A stretch of DNA of 64,000 bases from Cetorhinus maximus (Eukaryota). This document shows, piece after piece, positions 1 through 59,914 of this stretch. The DNA is taken from the NCBI RefSeq assembly GCF_964194155.1, contig NC_135881.1:187426001-187490000 (forward strand), in the 5' to 3' direction. A program made the translations under genes and the position numbers. The notes below the pieces were generated by a model, which had not been told where the DNA came from, did not search any database, and was given only the letters and a program-made list of their open reading frames with translations. The first letter of the stretch is position 1. Every line of letters begins with the position of its first letter.

Positions 1-1076
1 ATCTGCTGCCCCTGTCCTTCTAGATGATAGTGGTCGTGGGTTTGGAAGGTGCTGTCTAAGGAGCCTTGGTGAATTCCTGCAGTGCATCTTGTAGATGGTA
101 CACACTGCTGCTACTGTGCGTCAGTGGTGGAGGGAGTGAATGTGGATGTGGTGCCAATCAAGCGGGCTGCTTTGTCCTGGATGGTGTCAAGCTTCATGAG
201 TGTTGTGGGAGCTGCACTCATCCAGGAAAGTGGGGAGTATTCCATCACATTCCTGACTTGTGCCTTGTAGATGGTGGACAGGATTTGGGGAGTCAGGAGG
301 TGGGTTACTCGTCACACGATTCTTAGCCTCTGACCTGCTCTTGCGGCCATAGTATTTATATGGCTAGTCCAGTTCAGTTTCTGGTCAATGGTAACCGCCA
401 GGATGTTGTCAGTGGGAGATTCAGCGATGATAATGCCATTGAACATCAAGGGGTGATGGTTGGATCCTCTCTTGTTGGAGATGGTCATTACCTGACACTT
501 GTGTGGCGCAAATGTTACTTGCCACTTGTCAGCCCAAGCCTAGGTATTGTCCAGGTCTTGCTGCATTTGAACATGGACTACTTCAGTATCTGAGGTGTCG
601 CGAATGGTGAACATTGTGCGATCATCAGCGAACATCCCCACTTCTGACCTTATGATGGAAGGAAAGTCATTGATGAAGCAGCTGGAGATGGTTGGGCCGA
701 GGACACTACCCTGAGGAACTCCTGCAGTGTTGTCCAGGCGCTGAGGTGACTAGCTTCCAACAACCACAACCATCTTCCTTTCTGCTAGGTATGACTCCAA
801 CCAGCAGAGAGTTTTCCCCCTGATTCCTATTGACTCCAGTTTTGCTAGGGCTCCTTGATGCCACACTCTGTCAAATGCAGCCTTGATGTTAAGGGCAGTC
901 ACTCTCACCTCACCTCAGGACTTCAGCTGTTTTGTCCATGTTTGAACCAAGGCTTTAATGAGGTCAGAAGCTGAGTGGCCCTGGCAGAACCCAAACCGGG
1001 CATCACTGACCAGGTTATTGCTAAGCAAGTGCCATTTGATTGCACTGTTGATGACCCCTTCCATTACTTTACTGAT

Positions 1077-1210
1077 ACTCTTTCGAGTTATCAACAGTCA
1101 CAGATTGCAACTCTTTTTGAGTACAATCACAGTTCTTGGTTTCCGGGAGTGGGACATGAACCCACAACCCTCTGATTCAAAGGCGAGGGTGCTATGAACT
1201 GAGCCACAGC
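1077..1210 (-). mobile_element. tRNA-derived SINE head inserted in the LINE
   Basis: Reverse complement GCTGTGGCTCAGTTCATAGCACCCTCGCC...GGGTTCATGTCCCACTCC with A/B-box-like motifs; resembles the head of the SINE at 32895. Confidence 0.6.
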
Positions 1211-1922
1211 GGAGAGTAGACTGATGGGCGGTAATTGGCCGGGTTGGATTTGTCCTGCTTTGTGTGTACAGGACATACCTAGACAATTTTCCACATAGCC
1301 GGATAGATGCCAGTGTTGTAGCTGTACTGGAACAGCTTGGCTAGGGGCATGGCAAGTTCTGGAGTATAAGTCTTCAGTACTATTGCCGGAATATTGTCAA
1401 GGCCCATAGCCTTTGCAGTATCCAGTGCCTTCAGCCATTTCTTGATATCACATGGAGTGAAAAGAATTGGCTGAAGACTGGCATCTGTGATGCTGGGGGT
1501 CTCCAGAGGAGGCCAAGATGAATCATCCACTCGGCACTTCTGGCTGAAGATTGTAGCAAATGCTTCAGCCTCATCTTTTACACTTATGCTGGGCTCCTCC
1601 ATCATTGAGGATGGGGATATATTTGTGGAGCCTCCTCCTCCAGTGAGTTGTTTTATTGTCCACCACCATTCATGACTTGATGTGGCAGGGTTGCAGAGTT
1701 TAGACCTGATCCGTTGGTTGTGGGATCACTTAGTTCTGTCTACCACTTGCTGCTTATGCTGTTTCGCACACAAGCAGTCCTGTGTTGACACCTTATTTTT
1801 AGCTATGCCTGGTGCTGCTCCTGGCATGCCCTCCTGCATTCTTCACTGAACCAGGGTTGATCCCCTGGCTTGAGGGTAATGGCAAATCGGGGGATATGCT
1901 GGGCCATGAGGTTACAGATTGT

Positions 1923-2140
1923 AGCATAATACTGCGGATGCTGGAAATCTGGAACAAAAACAAAAATACCCGGAAAAATTCAGCAGGTCTGACTGCATCT
2001 GTGGAGAGGAATACAGTTGACGTTTCGAGTCCGAATGACTTCTGATGGAGAGTCATTCGGACTCGAAACGTCAACTGTATTCCTCTCCGCAGATACTGTC
2101 AGACCTGCTGAGTTTTTCCAGGTATTTTTGTTTTTGTTTC
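1923..2140. mobile_element. Short Penelope-derived element, inverted pair of hammerhead-bearing terminal repeats
   Basis: About 90-bp inverted arms. TSD aggttacagattgt (1909-1922) / aggttatagattgt (2141-2154). Confidence 0.85.
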
Positions 2141-5070
2141 AGGTTATAGATTGTGTTTGAGTACAATTCTGCTGCTGATGGCCCACAGCCCTCATAGATG
2201 CCCAGTCTTGAGTTGCTAGATCTGTTCAAAATATATCCCATTTAGCACAGTGGTAGTGCCACACAACACGATGGAGGGTATGCTCAATGTGAAGGCGGAA
2301 TGAGGATAAGGTCAAGTATGTTTTTCCCTCTTGTTGGTTCCCTCAACTCGTGCCGCAGACCCAGTCTTGCAGCTATGTCATTTAGGACTCGGCCAGCTCG
2401 GTCAGTAGTGGTGCTACCGAGCCACTCTTGGTGATGGACATTGAAGTCCCCTACCCAGGGTACATTCTGCACCCTTGTCACCCTCAGTGCTTCCTCCAAG
2501 TGGTGTTCAACATGTAGGAATACTGATTCATCAGCTGAGGGAAGGTGGTACATGGTAATTAGCAGGAGGTTTCCTTGTCCATGTTTGACCTGACGCCATG
2601 AGACTTCATGGGGTCCAGAGTCAATGTTGAGGACTCCTAGGGCAACTCCCTCCCGACTGTATACCACTGTGCCGCCACCTCTGCTGGGCCTGTCCTTCCG
2701 GTGGGACAGGACATACCCAGGGATGGTGATGGTGGTGTCTGGGACATGATCTGTAAGGTACTATTCTGTAAGTAAGACTATGTCAGGCAGTTGCTTGACT
2801 AGTCTGTGAGATAGCTCTCCCACTAGTCCCCAGATGTAAGGAGGACTTTGCAGGATCGACAGGGCTGGAACATGAGAATTTCTTGATGAACAAAGACCAA
2901 GGTCAGTTGCCTAATCTTGGCAAACAATCTCCATCAATTAGTCTACAACAGACCCAGTCATGATAAGCGGAAAATTACAATAGAGAGAGCTTTGGGAATC
3001 ATAAGTCCAAGGTCATCTGTTCCTCCCAAGCATGCTGCAGTTACCGAACATCATGTCACAAATTCAGATACAAGATATTGCTTTCTGAAAAAAAAAATCC
3101 ATTTTATTTGCACTTGAATGAATCAATCAATATGAACTGCTTCCATCTTGGGGGAATCCTATTGCACAGATTGACCACTTACTCACTGAAACATGGGCTA
3201 GCCTTTCTCGGAGGCCAGCAGCCGGGGAGGGGGCAAACCCCCTTTGCTGGGACCCGGGGCACCATTTTATAGGATGCTGCCCAAGCTGCTGTTGAATTAA
3301 AGTTGATCGCTCACCCTCAGGAGCTACCATCCAAATTGGAGGGCTGGCAGCTCAGCAGCATCATCGGGAATGGTAGCCACCACTGGGGTGACACCTACAG
3401 GACAAGGGCACATGGATGGACATGTGCCTTCAAAGTAAGGTAAGTGGAATATTGGGGGTGCCGGACAGGCCCTAGTGAAGTGGGAAGGGGGTTGCTGAAG
3501 ATAGGTGGCGCCAATAGCGCGGGTTTGGCCGTTGCTGCTGGGGTGCCCCTTCCTGGCCCAAATAGTGCCCAAAAAAAGGAGACCCCCCACTCGCTGGAGC
3601 CCACTGGGAAGGCAGCAGGTATCACCGGTCCACATGTGGTGAAGGTAACCCCCCCCCCCCACCCCTCTACCCCACTGCTGTTAAAATTCCAGAAGAGGTG
3701 GGAAGAGGCTCTTAACTGGCCACTTACATGGCTCAACTGGGCTCTGGGACAGATGATTTTGGTCTCTGCCCCCCTTTCCCCCCTGGCAAAATCATACAGC
3801 TCCATAAGGCACAGGCGCTCCAACCGATGCCTTCCCACGCCATTTTGCCAGCCTTCCCATTTTGGCTATTGTTTCCGCAGTGTAGTTTTGAATTTGCTGC
3901 ACTTCAGGCAACAGCCATGTTATCTGGTGCTACTGTTATGGAAAGGGTGAGATAGCTTGTCAGGGTCGACATGCGAGGTGTGGAGAAGTCACATTACAAA
4001 AGCAGACTGAAGAGGCATTTGGCCTGTGATTCACCTAGAAGTTTTGGATTCTGACACCTGACTTAAGATGTGAAAGGTTTTCCATTTCTCAGCAGGCTTC
4101 CATATGATGAATCTGCTGAAACCCCACCTGTCAAAAAAAAAGCCTTGTGGTAATTTAATGGAAACTTAATTGAATTAAGATAATGATCAGCCATGATTGA
4201 ATTGAATGGTGGAATAGGCTTGAGGGGTTGAATGGCCTTCTCCTATACCTCTGATTCTTCCTCCTGTTCCTTTCCCTTGGGGGGTTAGAAAAAACATTCT
4301 AATCTAAAACATTTAAGTCAGATTTTATAAGAGTGAATAACCACAAAATGAATGAACCTTCAATAAACACGAAAGGATAATCATCTCTAGCTCGATTCTT
4401 GTAGATAATCCATGTTGGAAAAGTTGGAAAAGATCGCTTAACTATCTGAGCATGAGAACAAATCCATTGTATCCTGCCTTATCTGAATAAGATTCTGTCT
4501 GTCATAGAATTATATGAACTGATTTAGCACAGAGGCTGCCATTCGGCTGATCATGCCTCAGCTGGATTTGAATAAGCTATCCAATTAATTCCATGCTCCC
4601 TGCTCTTTCCCCATAACCCTGTAATGTTTTTTCCTTCTGAGGCATTTATCCAATTTCCTTTTGAAAGTTTTTATTGAATCTGCTTCTATCACCCTTTCAG
4701 GCAGTGCATTCCAGATCATAACACCTCTCATCTCCCCCTCTGACTGTTTTGCCAATTGCCTTAAATCTGTCCTCTCTGGATACTGGCTCATCTAGAAAAC
4801 TGCTATTGAACACTTTCCTTGAAAGACATTTTACTGGACTGAAGAACAAAAGAAATAAATATACATCAAATAGAAAACGGATTAAATTCAATAATCTAGA
4901 TGGTTTGATAATTCTTTTCAAGGAAATGTTTTAAAATATTTTCCCAGTTGAAGTGTGAATCATTTGTTACTAATAGTCGTTGGCAGTGGGCAGTATTAAT
5001 TGATCTAGAAATTACCTAACCATTTATTTACAACTCAGTTTTGAAAGTATTTATTTCTTTCTGTCGACAG

Positions 5071-5181
5071 ATAGGCAACAGTTCTCGATCTCTGCCCGTT
5101 ATGGTCTATTTTCACCACGGTTCCCTCCAGTCAGGGGCGGCTGGGGCACATGACATGAAGAATCTTGCAGCATATGGACAG
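5071..5181 (+). CDS. Cholinesterase-like (neuroligin-like) membrane protein, first exon visible in the window; upstream exons not found in the window
   Basis: ag|ATA...CAG|gt, 111 nt, phase 0/0. Translates IGNSSRSLPVMVYFHHGSLQSGAAGAHDMKNLAAYGQ, matching the type-B carboxylesterase LPVMVWIHGG segment. Confidence 0.9.
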
Positions 5182-6143
5182 GTAAAAAGGGAATGCAGAT
5201 AATGTCCATCATTTCTTGAAGGCATGGTAGAGGGGCATGAGCTGAAAATTTGCAAATCAACAGGCTCAGGGAAATAGCTATTTCCTTGGACCAGTCTAGT
5301 GTGGAAATATTTCACCAATTTTAGTATTGTAGTTGCTTTTTTCTGTCATTTCATACTGCACATTATTCATGCCACATTATTAATGTTTACTATCATCATT
5401 GGAAGAATTTTCAGTCTAATTAACAGTCTGACAGGGTGGTGTTATCATTATTCTTGTATCTTCACACATTTCTCATGGAGAATAACGTGAATTAGTATAA
5501 ATATTTATGGACTGATTAACAGGCCACATTGCTCCTTCGATGACCATAACTGCCTTTATTTTATAACCTCCAGCAATAGGGTGGTAAGTGCTATCACATA
5601 CATTGGGGTGGGTGGGTGGGGGGGAGGGGGAAGAAGGTGGTGGGTAAGTTTATGGCCTCTCACAACCCGTACAATTGGTGGGACAACGGGCACATCCACT
5701 GGACACAAGTATTCCTCTGGATGCCAACACTGAATTCAGAGCCGCAGCTTTGGTCTCCACTCGGAGACTGTCCGGAGTGGCACTGGAAAGCTGCACATTC
5801 TGACTCAGAAGGAGGAACGCTACCACTGAGCTAAAGACCCCATTCTGTCTAAAGACTCACTTCATTCGGTCTAGGTGGTTGTCCATTTGAGAAATCTGTG
5901 AGCAGCTCTCCCTACAATGAAGTATCGTTATTGTAAAACAAAGAAAAACATACTCGAAGTTTTCTTTTTGTTGGAGCGAGAGACAGCATAGTTGAGATTC
6001 AGTCAACTAAATAAAACATATTAAATGTTAACGGAAAATTAAGTAAAAAGCAATTCATATGAAATGCATTCTATATAAAGATGTCATGGGAGGCTGGTGC
6101 TGGAATTATATAGCAAAGTATTAAAATACTTCAATTTAGTCAC

Positions 6144-6288
6144 AAAAATAAAAGCAAAATACTGCAGGTGCTGGAGATCAGAGTTTTTCTCTGAAGAAGA
6201 GTCACATTGGAATAAAACGTTAACTCTGTTTCTCTCTCCACAGATGCTGCCAGACCTATGAGTTTTTCTAGCGCTTTTTGTTTTTTAT
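6144..6288 (+). mobile_element. Short Penelope-derived element (degenerate hammerhead)
   Basis: CTGAAGA agagtc...AAACGTTAAC plus the family tail. TSD ttcaatttagtcac (6130-6143) / ttcaatttattcac (6289-6302). Confidence 0.8.
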
Positions 6289-6412
6289 TTCAATTTATTC
6301 ACTTCCCTCTTATTTAAGCGCCATGGGACATTTGGGGTGTTAGTAAATGCCTGTTGCTTGTGGGTTTGAGCAGAATGTGGTGTGCTATGATATAATTAAT
6401 TGGACTTTGCAG

Positions 6413-7068
6413 GTCGTAGTGGTGGAATTCAACTACCGTCTTGGGCTTCTTGGCTTTCTCAGCACTCTGGATGTAAACGCTCCCGGCAACCTTGGTTTCT
6501 TGGACATGATCAAAGGCCTTCAGTGGATAAAACACAACATCCAGAACTTTGGGGGAGATCCCAGCTCCATCACAGTGTTTGGCCATGGGGCTGGAGGGTT
6601 AGCAGTGGGTTATCTTCTGTTGTCGCCCCTAACCAAAGGCCTCTTCCACAGAGCCATTTCCAGTAGCGGCAATGCTTTGGTACCTGATTTCATCACAAAG
6701 CCTGGCAACTATTACTCTGACCCTCTTGTTGCTAGCCGAGAACTGGCCAAAGCACTAGACTGTCCAACTGATAATAATGTAAAGATGGTGGAATGTCTCC
6801 GAACAAAACCAGTGGAATCTCTTCTCAATGCCCCAGTGCCCAAGCCAAAATATGGGCCAAAGTTCCTTCCTGTTGTCGATGGTGTTTTCTTACAGGAGCT
6901 GCCTCAGGAGTCGCTTTTCAAAGGAAACTATATGAAAGTTCCTTACATTATAGGACTTACCAACGATGAGGCAGGGGATCAGCTTGTTGATCTTTTGGGT
7001 AATGGTGATGGAATTACCACAGAGACTTATCATAAGTTGGTGCTGGACTATGCCTACAGTCATTTCCG
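6413..7068 (+). CDS. Cholinesterase-like protein, large central exon with the nucleophile elbow (GHGAG)
   Basis: ttgcag|GTC...CG|gtatgt, 656 nt, phase 0/2. Contains NYRLGLLGFLS, GNLGFLD, FGGDPSSITVFGHGAGG, GLFHRAISSSG, the Cys loop CPTDNNVKMVECLR, PVVDG and GLTNDEAG. Confidence 0.95.
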
Positions 7069-9030
7069 GTATGTATAAGTTTTGTCTTTTTTTTGTTATT
7101 TTTCCACTCTGATTTTTTTTGCACTTACATTCTTGCTGAGGGACAGGTGAATTTGGACCTATGGGCCTCAAAGCTCTTCACCGCTAATTGCTATGATTAG
7201 TGAACAAACCCATTATTGTTGATCACACAACTACCAGGATGGTAGAAGGCAAACCAGATGGACCATTAACAATTGCTATATGAAGAATTGCCTATGTTTC
7301 TTGAAGGTGGTACAGAACACCCATGGAGTTCCTCTCAACACCCTTCCACAGGTCTCCTATAAAACCCTTTCAGTAAATTGTTTTATTCTGCTTCTGGTTT
7401 TGAAGATTCCAAATGCAGTGCAGTTTCCATGCAAAGTGAAAGTCTGTCTGGTCGCTAGATGCTACAGTTCCACAAGAGCCAAGCTATCTTCTCAAACTAC
7501 GTTCAAGTGATTATATTTCATGCGGGACCCGAAGATAGTCTATACTGCAGGAAGTTTGAGTGGGGCTGGTGAGAAAGAGAGATGGTAAAGTAAGAAAGGG
7601 AATCACAGCCAAGTTTGATTCTGTCTGAACTCAATGTGCCCACGTATGACGCTACCAGCAGGGATGGGAATCAGGATAAGAAAACTTGTCTGATTTTTGT
7701 GTCTCTGCCTAACCCCTGACATTAAAACTAATGTTATTGCCTTTTCTGTGGCCCTGATTGAAATCAGCAAACTCGGGGATCAATTCTGTGACCTTCAGGG
7801 CTCAGGTCTACACCTTGGAATTGGAGCGTTTTTTTTTTTAAACGGACTGTAGCAATAACATCCGAAAGTGCAATATTCCATGTGTGTGTATTTGAATTGT
7901 TGATCCGCATTATGCTCGCTATGTGTCAATTGACATTTACTTAATCAATTAAAAGGCAGGAACTTACTCAAGTGTTCTTCCAATCAACTTTTCCTTAGTT
8001 TATGCCGAATCGATAGAGGTCAAGGAGGAGAGCCTCCTCCACTCTCTGCCCTCAAGAAAATTCCTAGTGAGAATCTTCAGATGTAATCAAGTAGTCATGG
8101 TACAGATTGTACTAACCAATTGAAAAGCACAAATTTCCATGCTATATCTCAGAATATTTCAAAAAGTCCTGATCAACTTCCAAACTTCCTCAGCTGTCTA
8201 GAGTAGTGAAAGTGAAAGGCACACTACCAAAAGGTTCTGGGCACACTTGAGGACTATCAATACAAGTCGATTGCAAGCCATTGATTCCTGAATTCGTTGA
8301 ATTTCTGCTGCCTCTAACCAAAGATCAGCAGAATCAAGTTCCTATTGTTGATAGACACCACTCATCTCCCGGATTAAATGATTTATTATTTGTTTTAACT
8401 AAATCCCCTACTTTCCTCCCCTTCGATCATGACTTCCATTTTCTAATGTTAGATTTTTAAATGTTATTTACAGTACTTAATTATCTTTATTACCTCCTCC
8501 TTTGTTACCATGAAGATTCTGTAACACCCCTCCAGGCTTCTTTCAAAAAATAACATTTTGCGATATAGTTTGAGTAATTTGAGACATGACATGGTAAGTG
8601 CAGCATGCTAGGGAGGAACAGGTGAATTATGAGCCCCAAAGCTCTCCATTACTGAGGTTTTTTTCAAGTCATGTCTAGGTCTGTTGTAGTTTAATCGACA
8701 AAGACTAATCGCTATGATCAATGAACAAACCCATTTTTGTTGATCACGTGAATACCGGGATGGTAGTAAGCAAACTAGATGGACCATTAGCAATTGCTAA
8801 ATGAAGAGCAGCCTATGTTTCTTTAAGGTGGTAAAGAACACCCATGGCGTCCTAACAACACCCATCCACTGATCTCCTATAAAATCCTTTCACAGACCCA
8901 AAGGTGGATCTCAAATTGTTATATTCTGCTTCTAGTTTTGAAGATTTCAAATGCATCCATGCAAAGTGAAAGTCTCTCTGGTCACCAAGTAAGTAAAATA
9001 CAAAATAACTTCCAATGTTATTTCCTACAG

Positions 9031-9216
9031 ATTCAATCCATCCCAGATTGCAGATGTTATCAGCTTTTTTTACAGAGACTTCACATGCCCAAATGATCCG
9101 GCTGCCCTTAGAGAAGGCTTCAGAGACCTAGTTCAGGACTGCAAGTGGTTGACACCAAGTTACCAATTAGCAGACCAACACTCAAGCAGGGCAGAAACCT
9201 TTCTGTATATTTACAG
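9031..9216 (+). CDS. Cholinesterase-like protein, internal exon
   Basis: ctacag|A...AG|gtaaag, 186 nt, phase 2/2. FNPSQIADVISFFYRDFTCPNDPAALREGFRDLVQDCKWLTPSYQLADQHSSRAETFLYIY resembles AChE YTDW..PEDPARLREAL and neuroligin DHQWVAP..ADLHS. Confidence 0.9.
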
Positions 9217-9289
9217 GTAAAGTACCTCTAAAGTTGTAGAATTGACTTGATCAATTCCATATATTAGTAGGGTTTTTTTGCCTGATATT

Positions 9290-9636
9290 GGTTGATTTCT
9301 CATAGCTCTGCTTCTCAGAGACCCAGGGTAATGCTCTAGGGAATCCAGGTTCAAATCCCATAACTGTAGATGGTGAAATTAAAATTCAGTAAAAAAAAAT
9401 CTGAAATTAAAAATTCTGATGATGACCATGAAACCATTGCTAATTGTTGTAAAAACCCATCTGGTTCACTAATGTCCTTTAGGGAAGCAAATCTACCATC
9501 TGGCCTACATGTGACTCCAAAGCCACAGCAATGTGGTTGACTCATAAATGCCCTCTGAACAAGGGCAATTAGGGATGAGCAATAAATGCTGGCCGAGCCA
9601 GCGACACCCACCTCCCATGAACGAATAAAGAAAAAA
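9290..9636 (+). mobile_element. SINE whose 3' tail matches the LINE family at 17335 and 34797
   Basis: B-box-like GGTTCAAATCC; tail aagggcaattagggatgagcaataaatgctggcc...cccatgaacgaataaag followed by an A-run. Confidence 0.75.
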
Positions 9637-10901
9637 CTAGCTGAGACTCCAGTGAGATGAGTCAGCCACTGTTGGGTCGGGAACCAATTTTAACTAATTA
9701 CCTAACTGACTACCCTACAGATGCCTCTAAGCAGGGGCTTTGTTTGTTTATCACTGATACAAACTGAAAGTAAGCATAATTTACCGTTATGGTTAAGTTA
9801 AATGCTAAACGCAAACTTGACTTGATAATAGAAAGAGATTAACTCTTAAAACTCCCTTACTTACCAAATTCCCAGATTTAAGTACAGCGTTCAGGCTCAA
9901 GCTGCCACCTTTATGCAACTTACTTTTCATATTTTTGTCTGTCTCTCCCTCTCACACTCCTATTGCTGTTTATCCTGTACTTTCTTGTCTTGAGTTGAGG
10001 CTGAAGTTGATACAAAAACTGGGACTGAAGATGCCTCAGAGAATGCAATCTGGAAATTCCTATAGAATGCACGCACAGCATTCATTTTATCTATCCAATC
10101 CATCACCTTTTCAAAAGAACTCATTAAGTTTATCAGATTAACATACCTTTACCAAATCTATGCCTGTAATTAACTCATGTATTTCAAAATGCTCAGTATC
10201 TCAAATCATGGATTCTCAGACAACTTGTTGTACTCATTGGTGTATCTTTCTGTTAAAAGATGGCAGAGAAGTCACAATAGTAATCTTGAGCCTAATGAAT
10301 CTTTGCAAAACTTTCAGTATTCTCCCCAGAAGTTTTGAGACCGTAAGAGGGTTAAATGGACAGCATAGGGTTACAAAAAAAAGTTAGTTCACTATTCATG
10401 AGAGTCATGTGCAGCTCTAGTTCAGTTTGATTGGACAGACATTTGATAAACTAGAGAGAGTGATTTATCTGTTGTTGTGATGAGAATTGGACTGAAGTTA
10501 TTTACTTTCAAATCTTTATTCTTTAATGATGTAAAATACTCACTCAAGGAGTTCGCTGCAGATTTCCAAAATTGACTTTTCAGTTCTTAGACTATCATGG
10601 CTCCTCTGTTAATGAAGGCCACTGCTAAGGGCCAATCAGCTGTTTACTTTTGGGTTGGGATTATGACTCCAATAAAAAAAGGCTTAAAATTAATATCCAG
10701 GGACTTCTGGCTTAGTTCAATTTTATTTTGAAGTAGGCTTTGAAGGAAAAAAAACACATGCTGCAACTAGCCAAAGCCCCAGTCATTATTTTTTTTAAAA
10801 ATCAGTCCCATCCCATGGGTTATTAGAATCAGTTGAAGTGATTATAACTAACATTTTGTTGCATTTTGATTATATTTTTTAAAGATATCTGTATAATTGT
10901 A

Positions 10902-11121
10902 TAATAAAAGCAAAATACTGCAAATGCTGGAAATCTGAAATAAAAACAAAGTGCTGGAAAGACTCAGCAGTTCTGGCAGCATCCACAGTGGGAGAAACAG
11001 AATTAACGTTTGGAGTTCAATATGAGTTCCAAAGAAGAGTCATATTAGACTCAAAATGTTAACTGTTTCTCTCTCCACAGATACTGCCAGACTTGCTAAG
11101 TCTCCAGCACTCTGTTTTTAC
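10902..11121. mobile_element. Short Penelope-derived element, inverted pair, degenerate
   Basis: Inverted family repeats. TSD ctgtataattgta (10889-10901) / ctgtataatggta (11122-11134). Confidence 0.8.
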
Positions 11122-11479
11122 CTGTATAATGGTAATCTTATGTCTTTGTGCTCAAGTAAGGTGCAAGTGAGCCTATTCCCTTTTTCTGGCCACCAAGGGT
11201 TAAACATCACTCTCTGGTCAAGCTCACCAATTAGATGTGGGGTAAAGCTCTGTCAAAAGAAAAAAAAAGCCTCAATCCCAAACTCACAAGAATGTCCTTA
11301 CTGGTGCAGTGAGACAAGTTGCCCAATTTGTCAATAAACTATCCTTTGGCCACATTTAGTCAATTCATATTAGGGGTGGTTCTGTGGCAGTAACAGCGCT
11401 CATTAGGAATTAGGTGGCAATTTTATTTTAATTCTTGTGTATTTAGAAAAAATAAATCAAGTGCTGATTTTCTTTCCAG

Positions 11480-11653
11480 CCATCGTTCCTCCTTTTCCCA
11501 GAATCCTCCATGGACTGGAGCTTCTCACTTGGATGATTTACTTTATCTGCTTGGGGACCCTGTTGCCAAAAGTCCAGCCCACCAGTATAATGAAGCAGAG
11601 AAACAACTATCTCTCAGTCTCATGGCTTACTGGACAAATTTCGCACACAGCGG
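11480..11653 (+). CDS. Cholinesterase-like protein, exon with the triad-His region
   Basis: ttccag|C...GG|gtaagg, 174 nt, phase 2/2. HRSSFSQNPPWTGASHLDDLLYLLGDP...LSLSLMAYWTNFAHSG. Confidence 0.92.
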
Positions 11654-11917
11654 GTAAGGCAATATTTCCAGTGGCATTATTATTTTAAAATAAAGTTATT
11701 ATTTCATTTTTCTCTTGCCATCATCCAGCAGCTTTTGCCCTCCCCACCTTTCCCCTTCAAAGGTCAAGTGGTCCTGCTGTCAGGTCTCTGCCAATGCTGT
11801 TCTTATACTGACTACGAGGAAGAGCAACAGGAGAGCAGCCATGGGATCTTGGCTCCTAATGCGCACCTTTCCAGTTTAGTTATCTGAAGCAAACATTTTC
11901 TTTGCCATAACATACTC

Positions 11918-12857
11918 CAGGGGTGGTCAAACTTCCTGAATCTTAGAGCAGCAAACGATAATCTTCAGACATTCAGGAGCCACAAGACGTAGACAACCTT
12001 TACAGACACATTTTTATGACTTTTGCACACACTTTGAGGAAATATATTCAACAGAAATGTAAGTGCAAATAGGATAAAAAGTATAAGCATGCAAGAATGT
12101 TCACTACGTATGCATTTATTTATCTTTAAGTTTTCTCTTAACTTCAATCATAAAGTACACATACCACAGATTGTAAATCCGAATTGTTATACTTTACCTG
12201 TATTCAATTCAAATGTTTGCTTACATTAAGTTCCACCTTACAAAACGATTATAATAGTTTCACCTTAATTAAGGGATATTACTTAGTTATCAGGGCTAAT
12301 CACTGCTAGAGGTAGAGGCCTTATGAGTCTCCATCCTGGATACAAGTCTTTGAAAATCCGGCTGATAAGTTGTCAAGGTGGTAAGAAGAAGCTCCGTCAC
12401 GTATTGATTTGTAAGAGCTGCACGGTGTATTGATTTTACTAACTTCATTGTAGACGATTCACAGCAATATGTTGTGCCAAAAATTGAAAAAAAGTTGGAG
12501 AGGCTGCTCCAAAATAGCACTGATTGGTGCATGCAGTCCTACATCACACTTCAGGAAACTATAATAGGAATCTCGCAATGGTGCTAGGATGGACACCAAA
12601 TCAATAATGGACTCGCTAAGCAGTGAGACAAATTTGAGATAAGCTGAAATAAATTCTGGATTTTGTTTGTAACCCTCCTCACGCTGCTGCCTACTCTCCA
12701 GTTCTCTCCCTCTATGAGGCTGTCCGTGGCTGAGGCTGCACCCGGCTGTTTATCTCCTTCTACAGTGCGATGTAACAGTTTCACGGCACAAGGAATGAGC
12801 TGCACTCTGTGTAAAAGAGCTGCATGTGGCTCGTGAGCTGCGCTTTGACCATCCTGG
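11918..12857 (-). mobile_element. Internally deleted hAT transposon
   Basis: TIRs CAGGGGTGGTCAA / TTGACCATCCTG, TSD-like acatactc / acatattc. Retains the transposase C-terminus FGTTYCCES...MKLVKS, homologous to 40200-40400. Confidence 0.85.
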
Positions 12858-13419
12858 ACATATTCTCAAACCAGAATGGAGCACAGTTTCATATCTTCAC
12901 AAGAACCAGCATGATTTCACAGCAAGTTGGCACTGGGTTCTAAATGAGATTTTGTACAGTCAGCCCAAACACATTTGGAACTTGGTTTTTGAAATCATCT
13001 AATTCATTTCACTTTGGCTACTTATTGCTAATGCAGTGAAGAATTTTGCTTATGAAAGTATGAAATTCTAGCCAATGTTAGGGCATGTAGTTTTAGAAAA
13101 GAGCTTCCAGGCTTCCCTTTGGAATATATTGTTGGCACAATCTTGCAGTCAGAGCTAGATCATTGTGCAGTCAGGAAGCACATTCTGCACGTTAAGAACA
13201 GTGACAATCTGGAACTCACTCCCCATAAACGCTATGGATACTGTGTCAATTGGAACTTTTTCAACAGAGATTGATAAACTGTTGGGAGGCAAGTGTATCA
13301 AGGGACAAGGGGCAAAGGCAGATAAATGGAGTGGGAGTGCAGATCAGCCATGACTGACCGAAAGTAGCTTGAGGGTTGAATAGCCTATTCTTGTTCCTAA
13401 TATTTCTTTAATTTTACAG

Positions 13420-13894
13420 TAACCCAAACAGAGGACCTCACAGGATATTAAGCTGGCCCAACTACACAGCCACGGGCACAGAATTCATGAACTTCACTGC
13501 AGACAGATCAGGTTGGATAGGCAGATCTTACCGCAGACAGCAAACAGCTTTTTGGAGCAAAACTGTCCTCAAGATGCAATCTGAGGAATGGTGTAATTCA
13601 TCTGTGAACAACATGACTACTGCCCGACCCACCACCACCCAGTCTACGGTACAATGTAATGGAGGAACCCATGATATTCTGTCAATGAAGCTGACTCCTG
13701 AAGAAATAATCACTGGATTCTATGTTAGTTTTGCACTCTTATTCGTTGAAGCATTTATTATTTTGGCGCTGGTGTACAAATTGTACATGCAATGGAAAAA
13801 GGCGAAGAAATTACAAGATCCACTTGAACTGTCCAAAGTGTTTGAAGTACCTTTCAAGGAAGTTACTGATGAAAACTCTCTCGCTAAATTTTGA
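13420..13894 (+). CDS. Cholinesterase-like protein, terminal exon: end of esterase domain, Ser/Thr stalk, transmembrane helix, short cytoplasmic tail
   Basis: ttacag|T AAC CCA AAC completes GNPN..WPNY. Then FW, TTARPTTTQST, the hydrophobic stretch IITGFYVSFALLFVEAFIILALVY, basic KKAKK, and ends SLAKF-TGA. Confidence 0.9.
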
Positions 13895-19210: not shown

Positions 19211-19618
19211 GATCAATTGGAGCACCCTATGGAGTTGGCTAAGGTGGATAAATTTGTGACCTACTCATCAATAATATTTTTGGTCAGTTATTCCAGTCAA
19301 CCTAATTCAAGTTCAACTAAGGTAATACTCTCAGAAAATGCTGGAAAAACTTTGCAGGTCAGCCTCAGAGGAGAAAGGAACAGAATTAATGTTTCAGGTT
19401 GATGATTTTTTGTGAATTTTGTGATGCTGCCTAATACGCCAAGTATTCCCAGCATTCTGTTCTTCTCTCAGACTTCCAGCATCTGGGTATTTTGCTTTGC
19501 TAATCGTAATAATTAATGGAATTACTCCCTGGCCATCCATCATTCTACAGTCATCTGAACCTAACAATACCAGCCATTGAAGTGAACATACTTACAAATT
19601 GATTGTGAAGGAACCTAC

Positions 19619-19688
19619 CTGAATGTACAGCGCATGAGCTAGGAAAGGTAGCTTTCGCAAAACTCGTCCACTAAGTCCTTCACTTTTC
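19619..19688 (-). CDS. TRIP13: TRIP13 coding exon 12
   Basis: KSEGLSGRVLRKLPFLAHALYIQ, 70 nt, AG/GT. Confidence 0.96.
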
Positions 19689-20528
19689 CTGCATTTCACA
19701 AAAACAGGAAAAGGTTTTCACAATCAAAACTTAGATAACAGAAAATGTCAGCGTTTACATAAGGCAATTAACAGCATTCAACCATAAAGCCTAAAACTCA
19801 TTAGCAAAGAGAGCGAGGGATTCAGATCATAATAGCAGCATCTGTTTGTCACACTTTACAGTTAGAGGGCAGCAGCTATAAAATAGCTTTCAAACTCACA
19901 GCCAACTTGATTGTAAACATTTATCGGAGAATCTACACTAGTATGAAACACAGCGTGCTATGCTGATGTGCCATTGTTGTGCACAATAGAGAAATAGGAC
20001 GATGAGTTTTGTCCTCAGTTTATCCACTGGCTGAGTAAAGGACCCAACCCTGCCAGCATAGGGAAATACTGAGCAGATGATAGGCATTTCCACGGTTGAA
20101 GGGGCAGGGGGGTAATCAGGGGACAAATACAGGGGTTACTTCAGTGCACCCTCCTAAGCTTCACAGCACAGAGCATCTGTCTGCTTGCCCCCTCCTCCAC
20201 AAATGATGCCTGAAAACCAAAGCCAAGGGAGCAAAATGATACCATACACACCATCCACTTGACAGCAGTTAGAAGCTACTGAACAAGATCCATCAACTAG
20301 TTTCTGATTATCCTGTTAATACAGCTACCTTGCAATATTTGATTTTTATTCTGTACAACCCCAAATATATCTAGTGAAAATAAAAATGTACTTAATTGAA
20401 AATGTACAAGCGGTACACAGTCAGTCCTCCTCGTACATCCATCTTATGCTAACTCAGTAGTGATAAGTACACATGAACAAGTTGCAAGGAGGTGCCAGTA
20501 CCGCTCACACATAGCAAAAGAAACTTAC

Positions 20529-46520: not shown

Positions 46521-46917
46521 TCTGTACTTATCTTTTGTTTCTTTTCTTGTCTCATTACTACCTCCTTTCAGCTTGCACTATCATTCCTTTTGTCATTTAA
46601 TCTCTCTTGCTCTCCTCCCTATCCTTTTCTCCCAGCCTTTCCTTGCCCCTGTACTTGCTTAAAAGCTATTACATTGCTAAACTTTTCCAGTTCTGATGAA
46701 AGGTTAACTTGAACCATATTAACTGTTTCTCTTTCCACAAAATGGCAATCAAGCAGCAGTACGAGCTTATCTTCCTTATATACTGAGCTGGAAAGTAAAG
46801 AGAAGCACTATTACATTATGTAATACATTCCAGATCACTTGCAAATACAATTTTAGAGAATTATTGCAAAAATTTAAGGCTCGTAACTTTTAACCTTTCC
46901 TTCCTTCTACCTCTTAC

Positions 46918-47083
46918 CTGTCTCTCCTTAAATGCAAGATCCGTGTCTACGATGCACACAGAGTTTACATGCTTTGCCAGAAATTCGTCATCAAATTCCT
47001 CCCAGACATAATCTCCGAAAACCACTCTGTGCCTGCTTAGCAGCTGCAGCACACTCAGCCTCACATCTTCTTGTTTCACAGTA
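46918..47083 (-). CDS. TRIP13: TRIP13 coding exon 2
   Basis: TVKQEDVRLSVLQLLSRHRVVFGDYVWEEFDDEFLAKHVNSVCIVDTDLAFKERQ, 166 nt. Confidence 0.95.
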
Positions 47084-47819
47084 CTATCAAAACAGAACTT
47101 AAACCATGTAAAAACCATCACCTGTATTAATAGTTGTTGCAAGTGTGTAGATTTTCTTGCTGCCTTTTAATTGAACAGCAACGTCATAATAAAAGGTTTC
47201 TGCCTTGTTTCATATATTAATTTATTGCTGGTGGTGCAAATATCTAGTTCTGCGATTCATAGTTCATGTGTTTTAAAATATTACTTTTAGGTTTAGGTAA
47301 AAAGGTTAGATGTAGATAAATGGGCACATCTAGCTAAGAAACTGATAAACAATCCTGGGGTGAATGCAATTCAAAGAAGTTTGGAGATAATTACGCTTTA
47401 AAGGTTCAGTTCATGTTTACTTAAGAAATTAACAGTTAGAAAGGTAGATCATAAAACAGCAGGTGGGCTTACTTAGGTAAAGAACTGGAGACATGACACC
47501 TGCAGCCCTAGTTGTCCAGAGGGATGTTTTTGTTTTGGGAATTAGGGTTAAATTAGCTTAAAAGTATTTGGTAAACTCTGAAGGCTTGCAAAATCCACTT
47601 CTTTCTTCAGATCAAAGAAGCAATTTTAAATGAGGAATACTTAACCTAAAGATCTGTTCAAGGACATCCCAGAGCATGCCATATTGTCATGGAGATGGGT
47701 GGCACTTAGGAAGGTTCTCTGGTTTCAATATATCTGCATGTTTGATGTGTCTTATAAGGAAAAGGCTTGGGGTAAGTCAGCAGTAAAACGGAGTGCATAA
47801 CATGCATAGTTATAACTTA

Positions 47820-56730: not shown

Positions 56731-57337
56731 TCAAATCCTCCGCCCGCCACACCACAGATTCAGGCCGCGCACAGCGTCACACAAGTGGAAGCGGTGGTGG
56801 GGGGGGGCGGAGCGGTGGGGGGGGGGGTTGGGGCGGGCGGAGCAGTGGGTGGGGAGGGGGGTTGGAACCAATGCCCGGCAGGCCTTCCCTATTGGCGGGA
56901 ATTATCCCAATCCCATAATATCATTGGTTAGCTGCGACGTCAATTATTACAAAGGGCTGCCTGTTTCCCGGCGGGTCCCTTCTGATTGGCTGAATCTTTC
57001 TGTCACTCACTAACTCGCAGCCGGATTGGCTGCTGCCTGGCCGGCCGCCGAGCGGAGGGGGACCTCCCAACAGAAAGGGGGCGGGGGGGGAAGCTTGCAA
57101 ATTTGGAACGCCCGACAGATTGAATGATCTGGAATCGTTAAATAATATTTCATTAAAAAAAAAGAAAATCGGTGCCCACAGGAAGTTTTCCCTGGAGGAA
57201 ACAGACCCCAAACATCTCTTGCTGTCAGTCAGGGCACCGTTGGGCGCGCGCGGGGGAGGGAGGCTCTGCGCAGAATTGGCTGCGCGAGGGCGAGGGGCGC
57301 GCGGCGATTGCGCTTGCGCGCTGACGAAGGCCCGGAG

Positions 57338-57386
57338 ATGGGGAAGAAGCACAAGAAACACAAGTGCGAGTGGCACTCGTATGATG
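57338..57386 (+). CDS. BRD9: BRD9 coding exon 1
   Basis: MGKKHKKHKCEWHSYD then G|gtgagt; human BRD9 begins MGKKHKKHKAEW. Head-to-head with TRIP13 as in human. Confidence 0.95.
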
Positions 57387-58934
57387 GTGAGTAAGCCAGC
57401 CAGCCAGCTGAGTGGGCTCTCTTTCAGTGTGATGGCATGGAGGCAAGGGAAGAAAACATTACTCAGGGAGAGACGGGCGGTAAACGTCCAACCAGAGAGC
57501 TCGACCCCGGCTGGTGAGGTTGGGGGAGGGGCCCCTGTTTACACTCAAGTATAGAAAGTGTTGCAGCGTCTGCAATAGACTCATCTGCCTGCCTGTTGAC
57601 TTTTTTCGTTTTCAACCTTTGCTTCCTCCTTTTCGTTTGAAATCCTCAAGCCTAGTAATTGGTGCTGTGGACAGTAGCAATTGTTGGTCATAGCACGGAA
57701 CTGACTTTTGCCATTTTCTGCATTATCCGAGCCTCCTAATCTAATCATCATATCCTTCTCTTCCCCCCTCACGTATATATCTGGCTTCCCCTTAAAAACA
57801 TCTATTTGAGAACACAATTGCTCCATGTTTCAGCCTCATCACTGAGTAAGTTTCTCCTGAATTCTTCATTGGGTTTAGTAGTGACAATCTAGATCGGAGT
57901 CCCTTTATATTTTTGTTTTGCCCCCCCCGTTCTTGTTTGGCTTAAAATACTTACCAAATGCAATATAATCATTAAAACTGCGGTGAGGTACATTCAAATT
58001 AACTTCTAAAGTGTTTCCTAAGTGCAGCTGTAGAGCAACTTGACATTAAAAATTATTTGGGGAGAAAAAGAATACATTAAGTTTACAATAAGAAAATTGG
58101 GATTGGAAGGATTGATAGGCCACCAACTCTGTTCCATTTTAGTGAAGTGAAATTGTTTTAAGCAGCAGCTTTGATTATAGTTGGAAACATTTTAGTCTTG
58201 ATTGATCTGCAATGAAAATCTGCCAAAACACTCCACATGTTTTTCAAGTTGTGCCATAGATTCTGTTTCAATAAACTGGATCTTGTGTTTGGATAAGCAC
58301 AGAATGCTGATGTAAGGTCACTGATTTGACAATTGATGAGAGGTTGAGGGGCAAAGTCACATTACTTGGGCTTTAGAGCAATTTGGCGCAATGCACTCTT
58401 GCCTCTGAGTCAGAAGATTTTGGGTTCAGTAGAATACTTAGATGGCCTTTCTCACAATGGAGCACTTGCTTTCAGATGAGACTTAAACAGAGACACAATC
58501 TACTTGTCAAGTGGGAAAGACTCCAATGGCATAAGTCAAGGAAAAGAAGGGTTGGCATCCTTGTGCCCTGGCCAATGATTATCAAACCATCAAGATCTCA
58601 TTGCTGTTTGTGGGAGCTTGCTGTGTGTGGACTGGCTGCTATAAAAGCCTGCAAAACAACAGTAATTAAAGTTCAAGTAATTAATTGATTATGACATGTT
58701 ATGGTAAAAAATGCATCCTCTTTTGTCACGAAGAAGGGCAAACTAAAAAGGGAAGGAGGGGAAAAATACAAAATAACTTGTATAAAGCTAAAATTAGATT
58801 TTTGAGGAACAACTAATCCTTGATTATTAATGACAACCCGTTTTTACTGTCTCTCAATTTAGAGCAAATTCTTGCATAAATATTGCAGAATTTTTTTTTC
58901 ATGTATGTGTGAATTGTTTTCCTTTTCATCCCAG

Positions 58935-59149
58935 GCTTTATCGATAAACCCCCTGAAAAGCCACTTAAGCTGGTACTGAAGGTGGGAGGAAGTGAAGTTA
59001 CTGAGCTCTCTGGTTCAGGCCACGATTCCAGCTATTATGATGACCGGTCTGATCATGAGCGAGAACGACATAAAGACAAGAAAAAGAAGAAGAAGAAGAA
59101 GTCGGAGAAAGATAAGCATATTTCAGATGAAGAACGTAGGAGGAGGAAG
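58935..59149 (+). CDS. BRD9: BRD9 coding exon 2 (gene continues beyond the window)
   Basis: FIDKPPEKPLKLVLKVGGSEVTELSGSGHDSSYYDDRSDHERERHKDKKKKKKKKSEKDKHISDEERRRRK, 215 nt, ends AAG|gcaagt (GC donor). Confidence 0.93.
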
Positions 59150-59914
59150 GCAAGTTGACAAACTTGGTTCAATCAAGGACAGTTTGTATTTATGTACTCC
59201 CTTTAATGTTTAAAATAACAGGCCCAACACTCCAGAAATACAATTAGGTAAGAGAACAGGCATCTAAGTAACGTGGAGGGAGATTGGGATGGATGACTGA
59301 GATGTAGCTTGAAAAGGTTTTAAAAGATGGTGAGAAAAAATGGTGGGATCGAAGCTTTTAGCAATAGAGTTCCACAGTGTTGAGTCAAGATGGCTGAAGG
59401 CTTTGCCAATGATTTTGAGACAAAGGTATCGGGGATACATGAGAGACAAGAGGACTGATGGGCATTAGAAGGTAACAGGCTGGAGAAGCCTGTTTGAAGG
59501 GTTATGGGGTGGTGGTAGCGAGGTAAGAGATGGTGATGTTGAATTTGTTGCAGTGAGAGAGGGAGTTGCTGTAGGTCTGGTGAGGTGACAGATGAACTGG
59601 AATTTTTGCAGATCAAGATGCAATTTGCTGAATTTTGCACAGGCCAGAGTCTGGAAATTGGAAAGCAAGGTGGGCATTGGCATAATCAAATCAAGAAGTG
59701 GCAAAATTGGATAAGAATTTCAGCTATGAAGGGGTTGGGGTATAGGAACAGAGGTCTGATATACTTGGATTTGCAAACTGAAGAGATTGTGCTTGAGAAA
59801 AATACATTTTTTTTTTAGCAAAGTCAGCGCGAGAACTAGAAGAGAAATAGGAATATTAGGAGCTGATTGGGGAAGGCAACAAAGGAACAGAAGTTCAGTC
59901 TTGTAGAAGCAATA

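Follow-up and report, generated by a model that had tools for sequence, protein, structure and literature searches.

The question raised by this locus was whether a cholinesterase-like open reading frame of Cetorhinus maximus, which lacks the catalytic serine and ends in a membrane anchor, encodes a stand-alone adhesion molecule of the neuroligin type, as the original prediction had proposed, or belongs to something larger. The window, by which we mean the whole 64,000-nucleotide stretch analysed (contig NC_135881.1, here C3, positions 187,426,001 to 187,490,000 of the forward strand), contains five exons of this frame. They proved to be the last five of an 18-exon gene whose product of 1,716 aa comprises three carboxylesterase domains, designated D1, D2 and D3 from the N- to the C-terminus, and the 533-aa frame originally described makes up the last 533 residues, that is, D3 with its anchor. 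We conclude that the gene is genuine and conserved, and that it encodes a multi-domain form of the carboxylesterase/cholinesterase family which seems not to have been described before; it does not encode an adhesion molecule of the neuroligin type standing on its own.

Gene structure and the junction between the domains

Using 120 kb of upstream DNA together with the window, related shark and ray proteins could be matched exon by exon from a point 40 kb upstream of the window, where the gene starts. This gave a gene model of 18 coding exons (5,151 nt) with a single terminal stop, in which all 17 introns are GT-AG and phase-compatible (Table 1); only exons 14–18 lie in the window, which opens in intron 13. 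AG/GT ends and compatible phases of the five exons first noticed, with their 533 aa and stop, were confirmed, as were the altered oxyanion loop, the acid (TNDEAG) and the histidine of the domain they encode, the Ser/Thr stalk, the one predicted transmembrane (TM) helix and the short tail. The term ‘catalytically dead’, however, holds by sequence for D3 only, as D1 and D2 have complete triads.

Table 1. Exons and features of the three-esterase gene of C. maximus (C3, contig coordinates; all others, positions in the window).
Feature	Position	Strand	Content
Exon 1	C3:187386026-187387449	+	ATG, predicted signal peptide, most of D1 (Ser203, Glu326, His435)
Exons 2–10	C3:187390070-187415978	+	End of D1 and CEL-like D2 (Ser735, Asp861, His976)
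Exon 11	C3:187416070-187416212	+	Last D2 helix, linker and first D3 strand, all in one frame
Exon 12	C3:187420870-187420961	+	N-terminal part of D3
Exon 13	C3:187423864-187424010	+	N-terminal part of D3
3′ part of intron 13	1..5070	+	Gene enters the window
Exon 14	5071..5181	+	D3, altered oxyanion loop HHGS, His1198 at 5113
Exon 15	6413..7068	+	D3 core, elbow GHGAG (Gly1279, 6587-6589), acid Glu1406 (6968-6970)
Loop in exon 15	6896-6937	+	Counterpart of the neurexin-binding loop of neuroligins
Exon 16	9031..9216	+	Helical subdomain of D3
Exon 17	11480..11653	+	D3, His1517 in GASH (11526-11528)
Exon 18	13420..13894	+	End of D3, stalk, juxtamembrane motif, TM helix, tail, stop
Cys-flanked Ser/Thr stalk	13592-13657	+	30% Ser/Thr
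Juxtamembrane motif	from 13676	+	ILSMKLTPEE
Predicted TM helix	about 13718-13790	+	Followed by a tail of ~39 aa

Proteins of this layout were found in other cartilaginous fish. A protein search with exon 15 (proteins of 385–2,000 aa, best 120 of 608 matches considered) gave six matches at 75–87% identity, every one from a shark or ray, and the top three were proteins of 1,679–1,702 aa with three esterase domains each. Database models spanning domain boundaries were present in Stegostoma (1,716 aa), S. torazame (1,729 aa), Mustelus (1,686 aa) and Leucoraja (1,505 aa) and, in shorter form, in Chiloscyllium (1,381 aa) and S. canicula (1,242 aa). PF00135 (COesterase) was matched by the window exons, and in three stretches by the Stegostoma orthologue (1,503 bits). 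A protein atlas yielded nothing more specific than generic COesterase clusters.

Annotation often merges carboxylesterase genes that lie in tandem, the matches included many CES entries of two or three domains that lack a TM helix, and the database models of the present gene are split in several species. All of this would fit a reading in which D3 and its anchor are made also, or only, as a protein of their own and the long form results from joining tandem genes in annotation. We consider this quite improbable. The D2/D3 junction needs no splicing assumption because the end of D2 and the start of D3 sit inside exon 11, in one frame and with no stop, and the remaining joints are the 17 phase-compatible GT-AG introns. 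No hydrophobic leader lies between the domains, the product having strong hydrophobic stretches only at residues 4–9, in its leader, and at the TM helix, and the split Pristis model starts at an internal Met of the D2–D3 linker. One DNA run matched the exon 10–11 region with 0 differences and may come from the assembly's own sample. A look for RNA data sets covering exons 10–13 listed none. Three presumed-RNA contig sets yielded no exon joints, only repeats and intron pieces, and left exons 10–11 uncovered, a result that bears on expression neither way.

Several features of the exon structure were noted in passing. D1 lies almost wholly in one 1,424-bp exon, D2 and D3 are spread over many, and both cholinesterase genes of the C. 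maximus genome likewise have one large exon. Read-through at the exon 2 donor (exon at C3:187390070-187390259) would reach a stop after four codons, so that intron retention there is predicted to give a complete secreted D1. One annotated Stegostoma isoform (P0002 versus P0348) skips the HHGS exon, equivalent to window positions 5071-5181 (111 nt, frame kept), which would take a core strand out of D3. Intron 15 carries two ~85% alike copies of a 270-bp element, probably a dispersed repeat, at about 7184-7453 and 8705-8983 of the window.

Catalytic residues and relationships of the three domains

D1 possesses an HGG oxyanion loop, a GQSAG elbow and the triad S203/E326/H435, and D2 an HGG loop, a GESAG elbow and S735/D861/H976; from these residues both domains are predicted to be enzymatically active. 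In D3 the loop has changed from HGG to HGS (HHGS) and the nucleophilic Ser is gone from the elbow GHGAG, leaving Gly1279 together with E1406 and H1517. The codon of this Gly, GGG, is at least two changes from every Ser codon, as originally pointed out, and a sequencing error is further excluded by the orthologues: the elbow Gly (GHGAG or GYGAG) was found in all nine shark and ray D3 domains read, each of which also retains the His of the triad and an acidic residue close to its usual place.

Identity to the orthologues amounted to 73–88% for D3, 80–85% for D2 and 66–86% for D1; D3 is conserved as strongly as the intact domains and is therefore not decaying. A missing nucleophile and a stem branch as long as that of D3 (0.92 in the mixture-model tree described below) would be expected of a decaying relic, or of a pseudogene locus, but 5,151 nt free of stops and frameshifts, 73–77% identity of D3 to skate and sawfish and a fold predicted with high confidence make such an explanation hardly credible. 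The AlphaFold2 model of the sawfish (Pristis) D3–TM protein, based on a 114-row alignment, was a complete alpha/beta hydrolase with a mean predicted local distance difference test score of 89. A D3 homodimer prediction (score 0.13, compared with a mark of 0.32) gave no answer and was not used as evidence.

For the phylogenetic analysis, 664 domains were parsed, 159 of which were used in a quick tree and 59 in a mixture-model tree with bootstraps. Approximately unbiased (AU) tests were run on 31 and 42 rows with fast LG+F+G4 searches, the 31-row test with 5,000 resamplings and a program warning. These trees are limited by long branches, by own-genome NLGN rows of only ~330 aa and by the omission of the thyroglobulin ChEL domain; row P0261, which groups with CES and not with CEL, was left out of the later ones. 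An origin of the three domains by internal triplication (D1, D2 and D3 as one clade) was rejected (AU p 3.5e-42, 31 rows).

D1 clustered with chimaera and coelacanth proteins (support 100/100) and next with tunicate domains (100/95), among them the first and third domains of a four-domain Styela protein. D2 was the sister of vertebrate carboxyl ester lipase (CEL, the bile-salt-activated lipase; 98/90), with the tunicate CEL-like domains, including the second domain of Styela, joining next (97/99), so that Styela displays the same N-to-C order. In agreement with this, a comparison of the Stegostoma protein with the PDB placed six bile-salt-activated lipase sequences first, all on D2 (E 1e-135 to 1e-137), compared with E 1e-105 for AChE. 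D2 and CEL have the Ser-Asp-His triad in common, and three D2 intron positions clearly and one approximately coincide with those of the CEL gene of the same genome, whereas four further D2 introns do not match it. CEL, moreover, is a single secreted domain encoded by a separate gene, whereas D2 is tethered between two other domains. D2 was rejected as a CEL orthologue, being sister to and not inside vertebrate CEL, with a distinct CEL gene present on C10. Elsewhere on C10, 8 Mb from CEL, a further paralogue is marked by an esterase exon (L037, C10:15201314-15201448) whose elbow reads GQSAG and whose intron boundary resembles that of CEL.

D3 joined the dead membrane-proximal domains of starfish, sea urchin, acorn worms and Lingula with a support of 88/89, which is below the star threshold, and this group stood beside CES and amphioxus esterases (81/95). 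Its placement among the vertebrate NLGN proteins was rejected (AU p 0.0006 with 31 and 0.0007 with 42 rows), in keeping with the earlier view that the domain lies outside NLGN1–4. Indeed, four true NLGN genes were found on C7, C8, C20 and C35 of the C. maximus genome (78–91% identity to teleost NLGN4), which also holds two cholinesterases and CES genes. The AU tests left several placements of D3 standing, namely with the invertebrate dead domains (p 0.41–0.70; with the fourth Styela domain included, the best tree in both tests), with all neuroligins including those of arthropods (0.17 and 0.25) and with CES (0.09 and 0.08).

Predicted membrane anchor and possible function

Sequence features point to a type I topology. 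The tail of C. maximus ends in LAKF (window 13883-13891) and those of six other sharks and rays in (T/S)K(F/L), so that the predicted PDZ-binding end has undergone a change specific to this species; an S/T-x-hydrophobic end, which we take to be a class I PDZ ligand, is present in six of seven shark and ray tails (as S/T-x-F/L) and, by our reading, in 11 of 20 invertebrate ones. A profile of the juxtamembrane motif built from 20 invertebrate segments gave 1.7–8.7 bits with seven shark and ray segments and −0.8 to 0.9 with three neuroligins, and when the segments of three sharks were shuffled 300 times, the real score was reached 2, 0 and 0 times. Since two control proteins, other esterases with a TM anchor, gave scores of 4.0 and 2.5, the motif is weak and not confined to proteins with a dead domain. 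The last exon, which is single-copy in the C. maximus genome, was searched against 1.84 billion representatives, behind each of which relatives more than 50% identical are hidden; the four matches were Heptranchias, a skate-like fragment and two chance bacterial repeat proteins, and invertebrate tails were not reached.

In the reading that we favour, and to which we give a little more than an even chance, the 1,716-aa protein with its three carboxylesterase domains on one predicted anchor is a cell-surface lipid-ester hydrolase, D1 and D2 being the predicted active units and D3 likely a spacer and a scaffold for folding or assembly. Such a type I surface enzyme would carry its two intact esterase domains held off the membrane by the dead D3 and a glycosylated stalk. 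The sister relation to CEL suggests that D2 would act on lipid esters as CEL does, candidates being triacylglycerol, cholesteryl, retinyl and wax esters. An apical and probably intestinal site would be in line with multi-domain brush-border hydrolases and with the S/T-x-L/F tail end of most orthologues. D3 may help folding, spacing or assembly by analogy with the ChEL domain of thyroglobulin and the lactase profragment; substrate, tissue and D3 role are all inferred.

Lactase-phlorizin hydrolase (LPH) and phospholipase B1 (PLB1) offer an analogy, not a homology, as LPH has the fold of a glycosidase and PLB1, with its four-repeat layout, that of a GDSL lipase, both unlike the carboxylesterase fold. 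LPH is reported to consist of four homologous domains with a chaperone profragment (PMC6412902) and PLB1 to be a membrane-bound broad lipid hydrolase (PMC12467236); both resemble the shark protein in having tandem homologous domains, some of them non-catalytic, and one C-terminal TM anchor. The non-catalytic part of LPH, however, is N-terminal and cleaved, whereas the dead domain of the shark protein is membrane-proximal. Thyroglobulin ends, like the shark protein, in a non-catalytic COesterase domain, which is described as an intramolecular chaperone for the upstream regions (PMC10578121); the likeness is one of description, and thyroglobulin differs in being secreted and in having Tg repeats upstream.

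A number of observations weigh against the favoured reading. The gene is split in the database annotations of Pristis, Heptranchias, Amblyraja and Rhincodon, and exon 1 alone appears as 475-aa entries. The solved folds nearest to D3 are neuroligins (Foldseek ranks 1–17), and the best PDB sequence matches of D1 are neuroligins as well. In the chimaera Callorhinchus (P0232/P0361) D1 has an Asn at the catalytic His (GAGNGDEL), so that D1 activity may not be universal and the chimaera domain may be inactive. The tail of C. maximus itself has no Ser/Thr at −2, and the proposed gut location is drawn from analogy.

The fold ranking belongs equally to an alternative in which the protein would be bifunctional, D3 binding to some component of another cell or of the matrix and so setting the enzyme domains at a junction. 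Like neuroligins and gliotactin, D3 is a COesterase domain with Ser replaced by Gly, followed by an O-glycan-type stalk, a single TM helix and, in most orthologues, a PDZ-like end; its strong conservation, the AU values retained for D3 with all neuroligins and one quick tree (31-row set) in which the dead-domain clade adjoined the neuroligins would also suit an adhesion or receptor role. The lead of the neuroligins in the fold search is narrow, however (template modelling score 0.75 vs 0.72 for AChE, with CES close behind), and nesting in vertebrate NLGN is rejected. In neuroligins the dead domain directly follows the signal peptide, whereas D3 lies under two bulky, intact esterase domains; the tail has 39 aa compared with ~120, and the juxtamembrane motif is a different one. 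Nor is the neurexin loop kept: at the positions of the NL1 neurexin contacts Asp387, Glu397 and Asn400 (PMC6160412), D3 has Glu, Asn and Lys when mapped by counting along the motif, the last two of the three being taken as changed, whereas all four NLGN loci of the same genome keep it. We therefore regard the bifunctional alternative as unlikely. A purely non-catalytic, neuroligin-type adhesion molecule, as initially envisaged, is unlikely too because the two upstream domains have full triads, D2 being moreover CEL-like; D3 itself may still have a ligand-binding or adhesion role.

A further possibility, which we judge unlikely as well and a shade more so, is that D3 serves as a non-catalytic module binding lipid or bile salt, for substrate capture or for handing products over to the membrane. 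The His and near-triad acid retained in all nine shark and ray orthologues would agree with a pocket under selection, but neuroligins keep Glu and His too, with no pocket ligand known to us, and the His is lost in most invertebrate dead domains.

Distribution, neighbourhood and significance

The original prediction had regarded the protein as lineage-restricted or independently evolved, which is now doubtful, since proteins of tunicates, echinoderms, hemichordates and a brachiopod likewise combine active domains with a dead membrane-proximal domain, a TM helix and a short tail. The multi-domain proteins retrieved form a set of related rows chosen for their similarity to the query. In 33 of them a TM helix follows the last domain, and in 28 of these 33 that domain lacks the Ser (9/9 from sharks and rays, 19/24 from invertebrates), while 44 of 49 upstream domains keep it; without a TM helix, the last domain lacks Ser in 9 of 184. 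The uncharacterised TM carboxylesterases of Styela (four domains), starfish and acorn worms (two) and Lingula (three) resemble the shark protein in their intact distal domains, dead proximal domain, stalk, juxtamembrane motif, TM helix and short tail. They differ in that the mixture-model tree places the fourth domain of Styela, which has a long branch, with the CEL group, and that the distal domains of Ambulacraria group with neither D1 nor D2. Two observations concern other members. TM-anchored sea urchin proteins (P0096, P0147) have no Ser in any domain and are candidate fully non-catalytic versions. Two-domain proteins of tunicate type (P0130, P0145, P0150, P0159) combine a CEL-like first domain with a Ser-to-Gly second domain and no TM helix; this second domain groups with shark D1 and appears to have lost its nucleophile independently.

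Of the 120 matches listed for D1, six had 64–100% identity and came from sharks, chimaera, coelacanth and a skate-like record; the others had at most 43%. D2 and D3 did not turn up in chimaera or coelacanth, at which no search was aimed, and no tetrapod or ray-finned-fish orthologue was found in protein searches covering limited candidates and length ranges, which suggests gene loss in these two groups. As a tentative scenario, which we think possible but rather doubtful when taken as a whole, an old family of membrane-tethered multi-esterases with a dedicated dead anchor domain would go back to early bilaterians, and the gene would be all that is left of it in jawed vertebrates, retained by cartilaginous fish and, at least in part, by coelacanth but lost from tetrapods and ray-finned fish; CEL would have arisen when a copy of one of the domains became free and secreted, and the dead anchor would perhaps be a sister lineage of the neuroligins.

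The gene adjoins TRIP13, as originally stated, exons of which were found downstream on the minus strand (window 19577-19690 and 46864-47166). Open reading frames at window 57146-59155 had no Pfam match and are presumably BRD9. The same contig carries exons of the SLC12 family ~410 kb further upstream, which fits the human order BRD9-TRIP13-NKD2-SLC12A7. Long open frames of 571 aa and then 620 + 521 aa at about 187212400-187217600 of C3 (L053/L052) look, to judge from their motifs, like a nearly intact non-LTR retrotransposon.

The paper on carboxyl/cholinesterases of invertebrate deuterostomes by Johnson and Moore in 2012 (PMID 22210164) may describe invertebrate multi-domain forms. To our knowledge, vertebrate proteins of the carboxylesterase/cholinesterase family have either one domain that is an enzyme or one that is dead and serves adhesion, and two intact esterase domains, one of them the sister of CEL, joined to a dead membrane-proximal domain represent a new vertebrate architecture. 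No paper on the gene or its architecture was found in the literature searched, the scope of which did not extend to subscription papers, ESTHER and supplements; PMC12992692 and PMC3464141 deal with thyroglobulin-like proteins and not with this gene. Database labels of its pieces (‘neuroligin-4-like’, ‘bile salt-activated lipase-like’, ‘CES5A-like’) hide it; the 475-aa entry P0227, for instance, is exactly exon 1 and is labelled neuroligin-4-like of Cetorhinus maximus. The gene bears on the origin of CEL because the order of a D1-type followed by a CEL-like domain is common to tunicates. In a catshark pancreas transcriptome study no pancreatic lipase transcript was reported and lipase activity was attributed to CEL (PMC4362833), and for such animals the three-domain protein is a candidate surface lipase. 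Finally, it is a natural experiment on the role of dead esterase domains outside synapses.

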